Assembly: GCA_964534375.1 (NCBI GenBank)
Contig: CAZHPN010000196.1
Coordinates: 1 to 10,607, forward strand
Source: an uncultured bacterium
GTDB lineage: Bacteria > Lernaellota > Lernaellaia > Lernaellales > Lernaellaceae
Length of the DNA: 10,607 bases
Direction: 5' to 3'
Each line of letters opens with the position of its first letter. The stretch's first letter is position 1. Positions 2,895-10,544 of this stretch are shown here, in pieces. A program made the position numbers and the translations under genes. A model generated the notes under the pieces. The model ran no database searches. It worked only from the letters and a program-made list of their open reading frames with translations, and was not told the origin of the DNA.

Positions 2895-3893
2895 TCAGCT
2901 CGTACTCCCGTCGCCGCCGTCCGTCCGCGCGCTGTCCATTTGCGGCCCGATGTGGATGCTGAGATAGGCGACGATCCACGAAATGTTCACCCCCGAATGG
3001 GGGTGGTGCTTGTAATTCCACTGGCATTTGAGCACGCCGGCCGGATTCGCCATCGCCGCAAGCTGCGTCGGCTGGTCCAGCGGCGACAATTGCCCGCTGT
3101 CGGCGTAGACGGAAAGCCGGCCGTCGCAGTCGCCGCTCGTCGGGTGACCGAATATCAATTGGACGTTGTGCTGCGATTGCGTCGCCGAGCCGTAATCCGT
3201 AATGACGCCCGTGCGGCTGCTGTCGAGATAGGTGAACGCCTGCCAAACCTGTTTGCCGAAGTGGCCGAAGTTGTTGTAGGTGGTCGGGAGAAGATCCTTC
3301 GGCGTGAATGTCGGCGACATGGAGGCCGTCGCGTCCGCTTGCAGGTGCGTCATGGGAACGTCCCACGGGTCGCCCAGCGACACCGTGCCGGGCCACACGA
3401 TCGCCGCGGCGTTGACCATGCAGTAGCGCCGCTCGAAGCCGGTCGCGAGCCCGAGCGCCGCATGGCAGACGTCGGCCGGGAACGCCCCGGCAAATTGCGC
3501 GGGGTCGCAAATCGTAGCGATGCGCTGCGAGGCGGTGAGGTATTTCGCCGGGACGCCGTTGATGATTTCGTTGTTCGCCCAATCGCCGCCCGCGGTCCCC
3601 GCCTGATCGCCCAACCGGGATAGCGGCGGATCGTGCAACATCACGAAACCCTCGATCAGCATCCCCCCGTTGGCGTAGAACGTCCAACCCCACTGACCCG
3701 GATATTGCGCGATGATGTCGCCGCTGTTGGCGACGACGGGCGGGTAGGACTGCGCGCCGGGCAGGATCGCGCCCGCGTCGCGCCGGAAGCGGCTGGCGAG
3801 CGCCAGGCGGCCGATTTGCGCCGCGTAGGGCGTAGCGCCGCCGGTGGGCAGGGAAAACCCGAGAGCGTCGGGTTGGCCGGTGCGAGAGGGCAT
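2895..3893 (-). CDS. Hypothetical 332 aa protein, single-domain paralog of the 988-2664 protein; putative tail-associated/receptor-binding protein
   Basis: GGAGG RBS 4 nt before ATG; shares ordered motifs (ILPG, GxxxxxxxxLH, WxNN, RYC, QAF, LxxYxD, SWIxxY) with the downstream gene. Confidence 0.72.
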   Translation of the reverse strand: MPSRTGQPDALGFSLPTGGATPYAAQIGRLALASRFRRDAGAILPGAQSYPPVVANSGDIIAQYPGQWGWTFYANGGMLIEGFVMLHDPPLSRLGDQAGTAGGDWANNEIINGVPAKYLTASQRIATICDPAQFAGAFPADVCHAALGLATGFERRYCMVNAAAIVWPGTVSLGDPWDVPMTHLQADATASMSPTFTPKDLLPTTYNNFGHFGKQVWQAFTYLDSSRTGVITDYGSATQSQHNVQLIFGHPTSGDCDGRLSVYADSGQLSPLDQPTQLAAMANPAGVLKCQWNYKHHPHSGVNISWIVAYLSIHIGPQMDSARTDGGDGSTS

Positions 3894-3906
3894 GGAACCT
3901 CCGGTG

Positions 3907-4105
3907 AAGGAACAAGGAAAAAGTCAGACGCAGAGATAGTTCCCGTTCGGCCGCCTGAGACAGCCGCGCCCGATCCGAACGCGCCCGAAGCGGGCTCAGC
4001 CTTCCCGGCCGGCGAGACGCCCACGGGCGGGGAAGAAACAAGGAACAAAAAAAAAGTCAGGCCCCGCGACGAAGGAAAAAGGCAAAAGTAAAAAGGCAAA
4101 AGTCA
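3907..4105. repeat. Cluster of three heptamer arms ending AAAAGTCA(G); the last is the left arm of the hairpin element split by the cassette
   Basis: AAGGAACAAGGAAAAAGTCAG (3907-3927), AAGAAACAAGGAACAAAAAAAAAGTCAG (4033-4060) and GAAGGAAAAAGGCAAAAGTAAAAAGGCAAAAGTCA (4071-4105). A partial core match CGCGCCCGAAGCGGG lies at ~3980-3994. Confidence 0.75.
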
Positions 4106-4252
4106 GGAATTATTTCTTTGGCAAAGCAAGACAACTGCTACCGGATGTCCAACGCCTGCCGCATTTTGGTAGATGAAGAAGCCCGCTGCCGAAGGGTCCG
4201 CTGGATTGAACCTCAACATTTGGTCGTCATTCAATCGCAGCAACGCCGCGAA

Positions 4253-4600
4253 TCACCCTTGTGCAAAAAAAACCGGCGCGATCATTTTCCTTAACATGGC
4301 GGCGATACTTCTCTTGTCGGCGCGAGAGAGCATGCCGAGCCGCGTTCCCATTGCTGTTTCCTCAATCATCGCGAGTGTCGGCCTTACCCAGCTTGGAGAC
4401 GAGAGCCCCGCCGATTCCCAATCATTGACGGGGATGTCGCCTGGATTTTCCACGCTGGTAAGCGCCATACAGGCAAAGTCGCCATAAACTGTACGTGGAC
4501 CAAGGACAACGACTGGTCGTTTTTTCGACGAGCCTTGATCGGAAAAATCAACCTCAGCGAAGGCGACATCTCCGGGACTAAGGGCGGTCGTAGACGGCAT
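4253..4600 (-). CDS. mazF: Type II TA toxin, PemK/MazF family endoribonuclease (115 aa)
   Basis: PGDVAFAEVDFSDQGSSKKRPVVVL, ALTS and DWESAGLSSPSWVRP match the PemK/MazF pattern (GD..F.D....KxRPxxV, [IL]TS, GL...S). Start overlaps the upstream small gene by 23 nt. Confidence 0.88.
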   Translation of the reverse strand: MPSTTALSPGDVAFAEVDFSDQGSSKKRPVVVLGPRTVYGDFACMALTSVENPGDIPVNDWESAGLSSPSWVRPTLAMIEETAMGTRLGMLSRADKRSIAAMLRKMIAPVFFAQG

Positions 4601-4871
4601 CTTTTTCGTTGTCCCAGACCTTCGCTAGCGCTTTCTTCTGCACCGCCTTCCAAAAAGCATCGTCCTCTGCGGCGGCGCGCGCCCGCTCGGTGTTCGCGGC
4701 GGGGAAACGAAACAGTTGCCCTTTCTTCACCAAATATTGGCCCGCGGGCAGTATATTGTTTGGATCAAAAGTAAGAACATCGCCCCGCGGCGCCATTGGG
4801 CAACACTCTTCCAATTCTTCTGCCACGGACACTGACAGTTGTAGCTCAGTGAGTAGATTCGTGTCATTCAT
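4578..4871 (-). CDS. Putative antitoxin (97 aa)
   Basis: Start reassigned to ATG 4871 (ATGA overlap with the protease stop; GGGAG RBS). Small acidic protein directly upstream of and overlapping mazF. The C-terminus LAKVWDNEKDAVYD resembles the W-D-N-x-x-D-x-x-Y/W tail of small genes commonly found before PemK/MazF toxins. Confidence 0.7.
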   Translation of the reverse strand: MNDTNLLTELQLSVSVAEELEECCPMAPRGDVLTFDPNNILPAGQYLVKKGQLFRFPAANTERARAAAEDDAFWKAVQKKALAKVWDNEKDAVYDRP

Positions 4872-5974
4872 TTCGTTACTCCCTTCGGGTTTACGTTTCG
4901 CACCCATCCCAGGGAAGTTATCTCTACATCATATTCCCTTTTCAATCCGGGAACCAACGGCAAAATTTGGCCAGCGGGGATCTGCACCTGAACGTTTGGC
5001 GGAAAGACGGATCGTTGCCGAAGGCGGGCGCGGGTTTCATAAAGATATCCCCATTTTTTGGACTCTATTGCAGCCCCGATGAACCGAGCGTCGGCAGTCA
5101 ATTCATCTTTTAAGTGTTCGCCTAAAAAGAACGTCTTTCTCAAATTAAAATCAGACACATGCGCTCTAAGCAGTTCATCCAGGAGTTCAGTTAGTTCTTT
5201 CGACGCAAAATCCACTTGTTCCGGCCCCAAGATTTCTCTCGCTTCGTGCCTATTGATCATGTGAAGGTGCGAGAAAAAGCTCGAAGTCAGCGCCTCAATA
5301 ATCGCATTCACCTGCCGTTCGTCCGTGCGATGCAACCCGAGAATCTTCTTCGCAAGCCGCTTGATCAGTTGATGGACTCGGTGGACATTCCCGAGGGCGA
5401 TCGGGTGGACATTCTGGACAAGTCGGTCGAGGAACGGTTGCCACAATGCGCGAGTCGCGCATGCCTCATCGGCGTTGAACTTGAATTGATCGTGAACGAA
5501 CTCCCGATAGGCTTGAACATCTTCGACGCTGATCACGAGTCGCGCACCTGGAGTCACCGGATCGACGGGATTGAATTGGTTCCCGGTGCTGGGATCGATT
5601 GGGCTCAAATCAGAAATCGGGGTCATTACAATTTTTTTGCCGGCTAAGGCCAGAAGCGTTCCCGCACTGTAACAACGAAAAGGAACAAGAACTTCAAAGT
5701 CTTTGTCATACTCACGAAGCAGACTAATGATTGGCCAAACGGCGTTGGTCTCGCCTCCTCCGGTATAGAGGCAGAAATCGATTTTTGCGCGACGGGCCGC
5801 GGTTTCCTTAAGAACTCGAAAAAGGGCTTCCTTGGTGTCAGACGTCAAGGATGTCCGGAGTCCTCGAATTTGCGGTTCGCTTGGACGGTCGAAATTGAAG
5901 AAACAAACGAGGGTTCGGCCTCCCCGGATTTCCTCGATTTTTTTCATTATCGCTTGGCGCTCTTTAAGCGGCAT
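4868..5974 (-). CDS. SDH_sah-type (serine dehydrogenase proteinase, ClpP/crotonase-fold) serine protease, 368 aa
   Basis: Motifs LYTGGG, VLVPFRCYSAGTLLAL (nucleophile Ser), IVM...LSPIDP (Asp) and SHLHMINRHEA (His). AGGAGG RBS spacing favours ATG 5974 over GTG 5977. Confidence 0.85.
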   Translation of the reverse strand: MPLKERQAIMKKIEEIRGGRTLVCFFNFDRPSEPQIRGLRTSLTSDTKEALFRVLKETAARRAKIDFCLYTGGGETNAVWPIISLLREYDKDFEVLVPFRCYSAGTLLALAGKKIVMTPISDLSPIDPSTGNQFNPVDPVTPGARLVISVEDVQAYREFVHDQFKFNADEACATRALWQPFLDRLVQNVHPIALGNVHRVHQLIKRLAKKILGLHRTDERQVNAIIEALTSSFFSHLHMINRHEAREILGPEQVDFASKELTELLDELLRAHVSDFNLRKTFFLGEHLKDELTADARFIGAAIESKKWGYLYETRARLRQRSVFPPNVQVQIPAGQILPLVPGLKREYDVEITSLGWVRNVNPKGVTK

Positions 5975-6080
5975 CACGCCCTCCTACCTTAAAAGCGAAT
6001 CACACCTTTCTCGCGCTTCGGCCGCGCTAGCCGACGTCCTGCTTAGTTGTACGCGCAGTGGTCATCCCGTGACGCGTGGG

Positions 6081-6109
6081 ATTTCAGGCTCTTTTTTCCC
6101 CCGTGTCAA
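6081..6109 (-). promoter_or_regulatory. Candidate sigma70 promoter for the cassette operon
   Basis: Minus strand TTGACA (6109-6104), 17 nt spacer, TGAAAT (6086-6081), ~107 nt upstream of the protease start and inside the TIRs. The -10 element is only 4/6. Confidence 0.4.
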
Positions 6110-6316
6110 GCGGGTCTTTCTCCACTCCAACAAGTTAACAAGTTTTCCTTATTCGGCAAGCACTTACGCTATCTTAGCAGACCGTTTCTCACGCTTCCTA
6201 GTTGACCGGCTTGCGCGCAGGTTTCTTTACGGGCCGCTTCGCCGGCAGGGCGTCCACCGGCGGTTCGTCGCGCCCGGTTTTCACGGTTTTTCATGCTTTG
6301 CCAAAGGTATAAATCC

Positions 6317-6455
6317 GCAAAAGTCAGACGCAGCGCCTCGGTCCGACTCGTTGTCAGGGCAACCGTGCCCGAAGCGGGGCCGACGCCCTCCAACCGGAAC
6401 CCGGCTCCGCGCCGCGGGCCTGACTTTTTCCTTTTTCCTTTTTCCTTCTTCCTTC
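6317..6455. repeat. Remainder (core + right heptamer arm) of the split hairpin element
   Basis: The 102 nt core 6323-6424 aligns ungapped to the reverse complement of 8444-8545 at 83/102 positions (hand count). It is followed by a (TTTTTCC)n arm abutting the stop codon at 6456. Confidence 0.85.
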
Positions 6456-8399
6456 CTAAATCCATTCCGCGTTTGCCGCGTTCGACGCGCCGCCCCAAAT
6501 CGCGCCGGTCGCCGTGAGCGGATTGAGCGCCGGAACCTCGAGCGCTTCGGCCTCGGTTTCGCCGGTTTCCAAATCAAGGCTCGCGTTCGCCGTCGCCGCT
6601 TTCAGGCTGTACGGCACGGTCGGATCGTCGACCCAGACCCACAGGCCGCCGGGGGTCGGCCCCAGCCCGGCGGGAATGGTCGTCCGCACGCCGCCTTGCT
6701 GATCGGTGACGTTCACGCCGTAGCCCGGCGTTGGCGCCAGCCCCCACAGCGGCACGGCAATCTTGATCGTCGCGCCGTACTGCTGGCGCAGCACGTCCAT
6801 TTTCAGCGCGAAGTCCACGGCGTCCTCGGTGCGCCACAGCCACTGCGCTTCATACAACTCCTGCCGGTCGGTCAGCCCTTCCGCTTCCACATAGGTCAAT
6901 TCCGGCGGGAACCGTTGCCGATATTTGCCGGAGCGCGGACTGAAATTGTAGTCCACAAAAAGTTGTTTCAGCGCCCAACTCGCCGAATGGTCCGTGGCAT
7001 TGAACTTCTTGGGGTCGCTGTTATAGCGCGTCACGGGCAGCAGCCCCGCCGCCTGGTAGGCGTCCGAGTTGTAGAGCGGGTTGATCACGAGCTGCAACTG
7101 ATTCCCGACGACGACCAACATCATCCCGCACTCGCCGGCGAGCGTCGCGCAATGGCCGGACAGCAGTTTGTCCTTGCCGCCCTTATCGCCGCCGAGAAAA
7201 GCGCGGACCTGGTAGGGGCAGACGCCGGCCATCGAACCGCGCTTCCAATAGGCCGGAGCGCTGCTCCCTGACCCGGGCTGCCACGCCTGGCCCGCCGCGT
7301 TGTACGGCGTTCCGATCGTCTCGCCGATATATGGCGCCGGCAGGCCCGCGCGCACGAGAATGTCGAGCACGACCATCGCCGCGTCGCCGGTGGAAATGTT
7401 CCCGATGACGCTTTGCGCGTAAAAGACGTCGGACGGGTCGTATTTCTCCACCGTGCCCGGCGCCGTCGTCGCCCAGTTGCCATAATTGGCGACGATGAAA
7501 TCCGCGGCCGGATTGACGCAAGTGATAAACCCCGACTTCCGCGAGCCGCCGCCGTCGCATTTTTCGATCTGGCCGATCATCGCCGGCGCGCTGAGCAACG
7601 AGTCGCGGACGCAAGCGGCCGTGTCGCCCAGCGACAGCTTGCAGATCACCGGATACCCCGCGTTCGTCCACGGATCCATCGGCGCGGGCCAGACGGCTTG
7701 CAGCGGCGCGCCGTCCACGCCGCCGAAGCAGCCCAGCGGCGTCTGGAACTGCGCGCTGTCGTCCGTCCAGTCGCCGTAAACGATCTGCGCGGGCTTGTCG
7801 CGGGTATTTTTGCCGCCGAACTGCCCGCCATAGCCCGCCAGCAACGGCGCGACCTGCCACCAATATTTGTTCGGGAAATCGTAATCGTAATTCGCCGACC
7901 AGTGCGAAACCTTGAGGGCGATCGCGCCCCATTTCAACTCGAAACTCTCCTGCCCCATCGTGCCGCTGTACACGAGGTTGCGTAACGACAATACGGCCGG
8001 ATTCGGCGAGACGAGAAAAACGAACGCCTCGGAAAACAGGAACTCCCGGTCGCGAAGCACGGCCTGCCAAAACGCATCCGTCGGCGGCACGGCGATCTCG
8101 CAGGAAAACGTCGGCGGGACGAACTTCGGGAGCGGGTCGAGGTCCACTTTGCTGTCGAACTTCGGGGCCGACATCGCGCCGCCGTACTGGCCCACGGCGC
8201 GGGAATCCCCGCCGATCGACGCCAGCTCGGGAAAGGCCGCGGTTAGATCGTCGCCCAAGGCCCCGATCCGCGCCCCGCCGGGCGACGAAAAACGAAACGT
8301 ATCGTAGGCGAACGGCCCGGTTGCGTTGGCGTCTTTCCGCAGCAACAACACGACAAGGCATTGATATTGCGCGCTCAGAACGGCAGTTTCGTTGGCCAT
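6456..8399 (-). CDS. Putative phage tail tip hub/Tal-like protein (647 aa)
   Basis: Start reassigned to ATG 8399 (GGGGA RBS; the ORF-track N-terminus is repeat-derived). Ordered motifs PAQIVYGD, AAMVVLDIL, LAGECGMMLVVVGNQLQL, LFVDYNF and EAQWL resemble siphophage-type tail hub proteins; follows a Dit-like gene. Confidence 0.6.
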   Translation of the reverse strand: MANETAVLSAQYQCLVVLLLRKDANATGPFAYDTFRFSSPGGARIGALGDDLTAAFPELASIGGDSRAVGQYGGAMSAPKFDSKVDLDPLPKFVPPTFSCEIAVPPTDAFWQAVLRDREFLFSEAFVFLVSPNPAVLSLRNLVYSGTMGQESFELKWGAIALKVSHWSANYDYDFPNKYWWQVAPLLAGYGGQFGGKNTRDKPAQIVYGDWTDDSAQFQTPLGCFGGVDGAPLQAVWPAPMDPWTNAGYPVICKLSLGDTAACVRDSLLSAPAMIGQIEKCDGGGSRKSGFITCVNPAADFIVANYGNWATTAPGTVEKYDPSDVFYAQSVIGNISTGDAAMVVLDILVRAGLPAPYIGETIGTPYNAAGQAWQPGSGSSAPAYWKRGSMAGVCPYQVRAFLGGDKGGKDKLLSGHCATLAGECGMMLVVVGNQLQLVINPLYNSDAYQAAGLLPVTRYNSDPKKFNATDHSASWALKQLFVDYNFSPRSGKYRQRFPPELTYVEAEGLTDRQELYEAQWLWRTEDAVDFALKMDVLRQQYGATIKIAVPLWGLAPTPGYGVNVTDQQGGVRTTIPAGLGPTPGGLWVWVDDPTVPYSLKAATANASLDLETGETEAEALEVPALNPLTATGAIWGGASNAANAEWI

Positions 8400-8412
8400 T
8401 GATGTCCCCAAG

Positions 8413-8576
8413 GAAGGAACAAGAAACAAGGAAAAAGGAAAAAGTCAGCCCCGTGGCGCGGACCCGGGCGCCCGTTGGGGACCATCGGCCCCGTTTCGGG
8501 CGCGGTTCCCCTGACAACGAGTCGGCCCGTGCCGCTGGGCCCGACTTTTTCCTTTTTCCTTGTTCCTTGTTCCTTC
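8413..8576. repeat. Intact 164 bp hairpin element with heptamer-repeat inverted arms
   Basis: 34 bp arms 8413-8446 and 8543-8576 are reverse complements at 33/34. The GC-rich core is imperfectly self-complementary. The element fills nearly the whole intergenic gap. Confidence 0.9.
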
Positions 8577-10479: not shown

Positions 10480-10496
10480 GATGAGATCCTTTTTTG

Positions 10497-10544
10497 TCCA
10501 CAGATTACGCAGATTGCTTAGCGCGGCCTTCGGCCGCAACCAAA
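10497..10544 (-). repeat. CAGATTACGCAGATT + GCGGCCTTCGGCCGC hairpin repeat family copy
   Basis: Reverse complement closely matches 448-485 apart from an extra 9 nt unit; lies 17 nt upstream of the 10479 start. Confidence 0.8.

Follow-up and report, generated by a model that had tools for sequence, protein, structure and literature searches.

A three-gene operon in an uncultured bacterium

The window analysed here is the entire 10,607-bp contig C196 (CAZHPN010000196.1) of the 6.3-Mb, 381-contig assembly GCA_964534375.1, from an uncultured bacterium of the Lernaellaceae. Between positions 4253 and 5977 it contains three open reading frames (ORFs), all on the minus strand, which encode an SDH-type serine protease with a predicted ClpP fold, a small candidate antitoxin and a toxin of the MazF/PemK family. 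A sequence-only reading of this DNA had described three same-strand genes joined by an ATGA overlap (4868-4871) and a 23-nt overlap (4578-4600), and both overlaps are present as described. A search of the assembly showed the trio to be unique within it, and two metagenome loci (L030 and L031) hold copies that are 100% identical. The features of the locus are as follows.

4868..5974, minus strand: SDH-type serine protease, predicted ClpP fold, 368 aa from ATG 5974; PF01972, phrog_11747
4578..4871, minus strand: candidate chimeric small antitoxin, ATG start, 97 aa; phmmer and profile matches to small ORFs of related loci
4253..4600, minus strand: MazF/PemK-family toxin, 115 aa; PF02452, phrog_1936
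4868..4871, minus strand: ATGA stop/start overlap of the protease and small genes (plus-strand sequence TCAT)
4578..4600, minus strand: 23-nt overlap of the small and MazF genes, seen in the sequence
4106..4134, no strand: left imperfect terminal inverted repeat of a low-GC cassette, preceded by an 11-bp direct repeat (4096-4106)
6288..6316, no strand: right imperfect terminal inverted repeat, followed by the 11-bp direct repeat (6317-6327)

The protease and the toxin

The protease frame is open from a GTG (5977..4868). The ATG at 5974 is the most likely start, because homologues begin MPL... and the database copy (P0001) has 368 aa; the residue numbers used for Ser104, Asp128 and His237 are counted from the GTG. 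The protein matches Pfam PF01972 ('ClpP-like SDH-type serine proteinase', SDH_protease) with E 9.1e-11 (41.7 bits, cutoff 31.3), in a match confined to residues 4-134, and phrog_11747 (function unknown) over residues 7-267 with E 3.8e-34. The NCBIfam equivalog NF047768 was matched at E 6.8e-16, its 58.5 bits lying under the cutoff of 250. As PF01972 covers only the N-terminal part and the NF047768 cutoff was missed, the window protease is best placed in a divergent PF01972 subfamily. Weak matches were also obtained to phage head-maturation families (phrog_53, E 1.3e-4; NF045542, E 5.4e-5).

Ser104 (motif FRC[HY]S[AS]GT), Asp128 (SPIDP) and His237 (SHLH) were found to be invariant in 84 of 84 aligned proteases and form a candidate catalytic triad, which bears out the intact-looking Ser/Asp/His set described in the sequence-only reading; the 'SAGT' serine singled out there is Ser104, in FRCYSAGT. 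The window protease has the order Ser, Asp, His, which we take to be the catalytic order given in the Pfam description of PF01972. An AlphaFold2 model made with alignment A1 (predicted local distance difference test, pLDDT, 85.5; predicted TM score, pTM, 0.81) has an alpha/beta core that reaches residue ~135, after which residues 150-290 are mainly helical and residues 294-360 form three long strands. Residues ~270-369, outside all family matches and modelled as the three long strands, correspond to the C-terminal extension of ~100 aa noted earlier. When the model was compared with the Protein Data Bank (PDB) using Foldseek, the top matches were ClpP (E 1.4e-4). A wide VIA structure search returned ClpP (7eko_B, Z 12.2, root-mean-square deviation 4.5, 179 residues aligned), SppA (4kwb, Z 10.4) and the 1510-N stomatin-specific protease (Z 10.4), in matches that span model residues ~1-270 and scarcely probe the last 100 residues. 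As modelled, the protease has a ClpP/crotonase fold. By eye, no signal-peptide-like hydrophobic stretch is present at the N-terminus, and the enzyme is therefore presumably cytoplasmic.

The third gene is predicted to encode a MazF RNA-cutting toxin. It matches PF02452 (PemK_toxin) at E 1.4e-7 (32.1 bits, cutoff 23.1), with toxin residues 10-106 aligned to profile positions 3-108 of 109, and phrog_1936 at E 7.9e-7. The nearest protein on an annotated plasmid is a PemK/MazF of Leptospira noguchii plasmid CP091970 (35% identity, E 7e-22).

Conservation of the module

The protease belongs to a tight family of ~370-aa proteins with 679 matches at E <= 1e-3. Among the 119 matches listed, excluding the window copy, identity to the window protease is 51-65%, and source names include Dehalococcoidia, Nitrospiraceae, Terriglobia, Polyangiaceae and Gemmatimonadetes. 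Alignment A1, comprising 36 proteases, was used as the query for scans of three collections, yielding 112 loci in total: 28 from species-representative genomes, 4 from IMG/VR viral contigs, and the best 80 of 137 relatives from JGI metagenomes. A protease ORF was recovered in 106 of the 112, the remaining 6 being cut by contig ends, and these proteases fell into 90 clusters at 95% identity. Informative clusters, with at least 900 nt downstream or an informative gene, number 71; in the other 19 the downstream sequence is shorter than 900 nt. PIN genes were identified by a hidden Markov model (HMM) made from 16 of them, and 20 of 20 PIN genes checked passed the Pfam PF01850 cutoff. The gene content downstream of the protease in the informative clusters was as follows.

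Full PIN-domain gene: 59/71 clusters
Short or truncated PIN: 4/71 clusters (L035, L019/L112, L024, L028)
MazF: 2/71 clusters (the window; L060)
No recognisable toxin: 6/71 clusters (L006, L074, L086, L055/56, L103/104, L113)

The order protease, small gene, toxin was thus found in 65 of the 71 clusters and in at least 10 phyla; named records come from Acidobacteriota, Myxococcota, Gemmatimonadota, Pseudomonadota, Thermodesulfobacteriota, Planctomycetota, Omnitrophota, Chloroflexota, Dormiibacterota and Actinomycetota. The ORF between protease and toxin is 62-120 aa long, has no Pfam family and follows the consensus Q-x-S-x-S-T-A-E-x-E-x-N-Y-F ... L-P-P-G-x-Y-R-V-I-D-G-x-L-x-R. It starts 4 nt before the protease stop in 49/72 cases. 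The PIN gene in turn overlaps the small ORF by 4 nt in 15/57, most others beginning within 35 nt. The window belongs to this module, having an A1-family protease coupled to a small ORF that carries the Q-S-x-S-T-A-E ... PG-x-YRV-x-DG motifs; its third gene is MazF rather than PIN, and no PIN of the module family was found anywhere in the assembly. In L035, L024, L028, L006, L074 and L086 the protease and small gene are kept and the toxin is truncated or missing, which is how toxin modules usually decay.

These comparisons support the view that the three genes form a functional unit. They demonstrate that the module is conserved over many phyla as a single operon, translationally coupled as judged from its overlaps, whose usual toxin is a predicted PIN nuclease. 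The sequence-only reading, which concerned a trio with MazF, had staked its case on conservation in unrelated genomes. This holds for the architecture, since protease, small gene and toxin recur together, but the conserved trio carries mostly PIN (63/71), with MazF in 2/71.

A chimeric small protein

The 97-aa protein has no family in Pfam, PHROGs, NCBIfam or PADLOC. No AbrB/SpoVT, ribbon-helix-helix or helix-turn-helix domain was detected, Pfam to E 5 giving only a chance-level DUF7650, and there was no match to PDB sequences at E up to 10. A homologue search with the protein returned itself only, and the protein Atlas gave no usable match for a PIN-type small protein. When it was compared with the small ORFs of the related loci using phmmer, matches were found in L002, L008, L010 and L005 (E 1.4e-5 to 6e-3), and an HMM of the small ORFs finds the protein, through the identical copies L030/L031, at E 6.1e-7. 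Alignment A3 (51 sequences) shows that residues 1 to ~62 align with the family, with up to 35% identity, and that residues ~63-97 are without counterpart.

This C-terminal tail carries KVWDNEKDAVYD and resembles that of the MazF antitoxin encoded on the Leptospira plasmid, a 66-aa protein whose gene lies upstream of the toxin. The Leptospira antitoxin ends in ...SENSFAKIWDNEEDAVYDNL and the window protein in ...KKALAKVWDNEKDAVYDRP; 11/17 residues are identical (pairwise E 1e-7), and the antitoxin/toxin gene overlap is exactly 23 nt in both pairs. Two PrlF-type antitoxins of other MazF relatives have a looser W/Y-acidic tail and a different N-domain. From the homology of its N-part to the module family and of its tail to a MazE-like antitoxin, we therefore regard the 97-aa protein as a chimera. 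The MazE-like tail appears, on these alignments, to have come together with MazF, and the protein is very probably the MazF antitoxin. The MazE-type antitoxin proposed in the sequence-only reading is consequently recognisable in the tail, but not in the N-part, which has no DNA-binding domain and is shared with PIN loci.

Modelled alone, the small protein has a pTM of 0.35 and no globular fold, with residues 1-45 in coil, 46-55 forming a hairpin and 61-93 a helix. A model unfolded in isolation is what would be expected both for a partner that folds on binding and for a protease substrate. A complex prediction without controls, combining the protease (A1) with the small protein (A3), scored 0.20, below the 0.32 mark, and carries no weight either way as to binding.

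Replacement of the toxin

The second MazF variant (L060:1453-2081, a metagenome contig) encodes a 138-aa PemK toxin (PF02452, E 7.9e-10) unrelated to the window MazF, preceded by a small protein of the family with a W-rich acidic tail ending ..NDWSLLAKHAVEQWSGENPY. The relationship of the two variants was examined in a tree of 84 proteases, obtained by a quick maximum-likelihood search in which poorly supported forks are not reliable. L060 groups with L014 and L074 (SH-aLRT 98) within an otherwise PIN-linked clade (support 99) that excludes the window. The window protease itself nests among PIN-linked proteases, with L032 as sister (support 83). Because L060 and the window lie on separate branches, two independent replacements of PIN by MazF are the simpler reading. 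The tree and the gene content together show, by comparative sequence evidence, that PIN has been replaced by MazF at least twice and that MazF is a secondary swap. The alignments likewise show that the swap in the window added a MazE-like C-terminal tail and left the small-protein N-part of the family type. In both swaps the tail of the small protein differs with toxin type.

Distant relatives of the protease

Two plasmid-borne homologues lie further away. On an E. coli phage-plasmid (NZ_CP081704, 2229-3396; L122), a 331-aa SDH protease, 31% identical to that of the window, stands alone without a toxin. An unannotated 59-aa ORF overlaps its stop, and the locus sits between a Q antiterminator and a holin, an interval that is a classic site for phage cargo genes. 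On a Chlorohelix plasmid (NZ_CP128401, 4001-8753; L123), a distant homologue is followed by a 74-aa ORF and then by a protein of more than 1000 aa combining a PD-(D/E)XK nuclease with an SF1 helicase, with Mokosh/Dpd-like helicase matches; this nuclease-helicase may represent a third type of effector. Against the small-protein HMMs, the 74-aa and 59-aa ORFs scored ~0 (E 0.03-0.13, Z=1). The Chlorohelix ORF, in which 'FRFSTTD' looks motif-like by eye, had been considered as a family member and was dropped, homology being unsupported at a score of ~0.

Genomic surroundings

GC content is 0.48-0.57 from ~4050 to ~6300 and 0.60-0.70 outside. The trio is flanked by a 29-nt imperfect inverted repeat (4106-4134 / 6288-6316, 83%), directly outside which lies an 11-bp direct repeat, GCAAAAGTCAG, at 4096-4106 and 6317-6327. 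The 11-mer occurs four times in the genome; the core of the inverted repeat, TTTGGCAAAGCA, occurs at these two sites only in the 6.3-Mb assembly and is absent from all other loci. No transposase is present in the cassette. A cassette-free site was not found, relatives of the 657-aa neighbour in the same family of genomes being only 23-32% identical. On its sequence features, the cassette looks like an insertion with target duplication. The mobile cassette of the sequence-only reading is upheld in part, by its low GC content, bounding inverted repeat and direct repeat, but it has no transposase, and the outer arms, on which that reading was probably based, proved to be a genome-wide repeat. These outer purine-rich inverted repeats were for that reason rejected as cassette ends.

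Hairpin repeats with such purine-rich arms (GGAAGGAACAAGGAAAAAGGAAAAAGTCAG and complement) occur between large genes at 6310-6457, 8411-8576 and 3900-4107. At least 40 matches to the arm are spread over more than 20 of the contigs, and in most cases two copies face each other at a distance of 100-180 nt.

The large neighbours of the trio gave no Pfam, PHROG or PADLOC match. For the 657-aa ORFan on one side (6456-8429, minus strand), the clusters closest to it in the Atlas are viral, and Phage-tail_3 is found in 14-33% of their members; the Atlas scores of 0.97-0.98 and structural TM of ~0.6 are a lead only. This suggests that the contig is a prophage tail region carrying the trio as a cargo insertion, and all five large genes around the trio may have prophage tail functions, although PHROGs finds nothing for them. 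Elsewhere on the contig, a 9-bp unit (ATAAGTCCT type) is repeated eight times head to tail at 2783-2884, in the interval that separates the 558-aa gene from the 332-aa gene. The 558-aa and 301-aa genes each have, shortly before the start, one copy of a 35-nt direct repeat (91%; 2688-2722 / 10490-10524), which from its position could act as a promoter or leader element common to both genes. Inverted copies of the repeat are found near the left contig end (448-482 / 10510-10544 and 502-535 / 2706-2739).

Across the family, we scanned up to three flanking genes per side at 61 loci, using simple longest-ORF gene calls that make the counts rough, and found no conserved neighbour gene. An integrase, transposase, recombinase, Rep, relaxase, S24 repressor or phage structural gene lies within three genes at ~15/61 loci (L011, L006, L110, L041, L061, L079, L084, L112, L111, L113, L104, L016, L020, L091, L027). 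Restriction-modification-like, SMC-like, M78 or further PIN genes do so at ~9/61 (L015, L032, L009, L004, L044, L088, L108, L025, L023). At ~37/61 neither mobile-element nor defence genes were seen at this distance.

Metatranscriptome contigs

Contigs matching parts of all three genes with no mismatches were found in three metatranscriptome runs from three studies. The first (X4) covers 4261-4411, 4510-4944, 5179-5377 and 5402-5586; the second (X5) 4536-4837, 5355-5505 and 5734-5952; and the third (X6) 4450-4749 and 5358-5660. The X4 contig at 4510-4944 crosses both gene junctions, which fits co-transcription of the trio in situ. The flanks at 3600-4240 and 5954-6380 have no contigs in the three runs, and we have not used this as evidence.

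Discussion

On balance, it seems reasonably probable from the comparisons above that the operon is a self-contained toxin-antitoxin (TA) or defence module, in its MazF variant, whose own protease acts on the antitoxin. The tail of the small protein would block MazF, as in canonical MazEF pairs, and the N-part, with its Q-x-S-x-S-T-A-E motif and beta-hairpin, would be the part that the cytoplasmic protease encoded in the operon recognises or cleaves. By cutting or degrading the antitoxin, the protease would free the toxin. Firing would occur when fresh antitoxin synthesis stops, be it through element loss or through transcription shut-off by an infecting phage, or alternatively when the protease is activated. 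As the module, and not host Lon or ClpXP, would make the antitoxin unstable, it would function whatever the host. Such host-independent turnover would account for its spread over many phyla and for activation on element loss or transcription shut-off. The low-GC insertion among phage-tail-like genes indicates that the module is probably stabilising or anti-phage cargo of a prophage. More tentatively, the family as a whole could be a portable class of protease-gated modules: the protease and an adaptor-antitoxin would be the control unit, effectors would be swapped via the antitoxin tail, and the protease would act as the release switch. The effectors would then be PIN, MazF and possibly the nuclease-helicase, released on phage infection or element loss.

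Several observations weigh against this interpretation. The small protein of the window has Val where at least 90% of relatives have Thr in the S-T-A-E motif. Only 4 of the 112 loci come from the viral collection, and a phage GenBank set contains only weak relatives of the protease (24-26% identity), so a link with phages is not general. The RNA contigs give neither strand nor a single transcript, and DNA carry-over is possible. Finally, 6/71 clusters have a protease with no recognisable toxin and the E. coli phage-plasmid homologue is toxin-free, so the protease can evidently persist without a toxin.

The main rival is the sequence-only reading in its strict form, a triggered abortive-infection sensor in which the protease stays inactive until a phage signal, such as a capsid or scaffold protein, activates it and it cuts the antitoxin. 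The protease fold is that of phage head-maturation proteases, to which the weak phrog_53 and NF045542 matches also point, and the ~235 residues outside the ClpP core (helical region 150-290, sheet 294-360) could gate or sense. Some loci adjoin restriction-modification genes or sit in prophages, and the Chlorohelix homologue precedes a PD-(D/E)XK and SF1-helicase protein of Mokosh/Dpd-like type. DefenseFinder also has a system named after SDH_sah, whose label, FS_HP_SDH_sah, appears in PMC13532340. However, no trigger can be identified from sequence, ~37/61 loci are without mobile-element or defence genes within three genes, and PADLOC gives no match, although it has no SDH model. We consider a sensor of this kind possible but rather unlikely.

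Less probable still is the reading that the small protein mainly inhibits the protease or regulates it in the manner of a pro-peptide, with the toxin, cell proteins or phage proteins as targets of the protease and the toxin as a second effector or as the protein degraded. The conserved N-terminal linear motif could indeed be a pseudosubstrate, and proteases without toxin in 6/71 clusters and on the E. coli phage-plasmid would be readily understood. Tail homology nevertheless links the small protein directly to MazF, the tail follows toxin type in two independent swaps, and a small gene overlapping a following toxin gene is the antitoxin-toxin norm. Finally, the rarity of MazF with a module protease (2/71 clusters) could be read as a chance neighbourhood, an ordinary MazEF pair behind an unrelated protease. 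This is contradicted already by the homology of the N-part, residues 1-62 of the small protein belonging to the protease-linked family, and by the conserved architecture, with an ATGA overlap joining the small gene to the protease and the same arrangement with PIN in 63/71 clusters; we give it almost no credence. The self-contained module remains our preferred reading.

Parts of the module recall known systems. The canonical MazEF/PemIK pair of Leptospira noguchii (CP091970) has a PemK/MazF toxin 35% identical to that of the window, an antitoxin gene upstream with a 23-nt overlap, and a common antitoxin tail, ..(A/F)AK(V/I)WDNE.DAVYD.. The window differs in that the antitoxin N-part is not DNA-binding and is instead a segment shared with PIN-linked loci, and in that a dedicated, translationally coupled protease gene lies upstream. 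VapBC is similar in having a PIN toxin behind a small overlapping gene, as in 63/71 related clusters, but the window toxin is MazF, there is a third gene for the protease, and the small protein matches no Pfam VapB-type family. FS_HP_SDH_sah is said to consist of a hypothetical protein and an SDH_sah protease in phage-inducible islands, reportedly described by Fillol-Salom et al. in 2022. On that account it would share an SDH_sah (PF01972) protease with a small or unknown partner in a mobile-element anti-phage system, and differ in consisting of two genes without a PIN or MazF toxin; the homologue on the E. coli phage-plasmid has no toxin and shares only 31% identity with the window protease.

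Tripartite TA systems with an accessory protein include toxin-antitoxin-chaperone (SecB-like) systems, HipBST and predicted triads of COG2856 (ImmA/IrrE Zn-protease), Xre and toxin. Here too, what becomes of the antitoxin is decided by a third protein from the same operon, as proposed for the window, where, in contrast, that protein is a predicted ClpP-fold serine protease and not a chaperone, kinase fragment or metalloprotease, and is encoded first and coupled to the antitoxin. In the type III CRISPR-associated CalpL-CalpT-CalpS system, a Lon-type protease activated by cyclic oligoadenylate releases a sigma factor. It is alike in that a dedicated protease acts on a partner carrying or controlling a MazF-fold protein, but a sigma factor rather than an RNase toxin is released, and no sequence relationship to the window module is known.

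The sequence-only reading had not recognised the trio as a named system, and neither the literature searched nor PADLOC provided a description. PADLOC 2.0 gave 0 hits for the three window proteins, their relatives and the E. coli homologue; as it has no SDH model, this does not bear on novelty. Full-text literature searches found no SDH or ClpP-fold protease in a TA operon, and the definition of FS_HP_SDH_sah may bear on novelty; the word 'protease' is absent from the 'Tai' paper (PMC11364771). The module is apparently widespread and undescribed, the MazF form being a rare variant, and we view the finding as a variant of tripartite TA or defence modules.

It has long been asked how type II antitoxins are removed so that their toxins are set free; host Lon and Clp are usually invoked, and their role is disputed. 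If the proposed mechanism is correct, a TA module with its own protease would render antitoxin removal explicit and open to test by means of three genes and a single point mutation, and would explain how one module works in at least 10 phyla. The PIN-to-MazF swaps, with their junction inside the antitoxin, mark the parts of the small protein that would serve the toxin and the protease respectively, and the protease-small protein-toxin family offers a ready-made system for studying the modular evolution of toxin control. If the module is anti-phage, it would add a family to the catalogue of defence systems.

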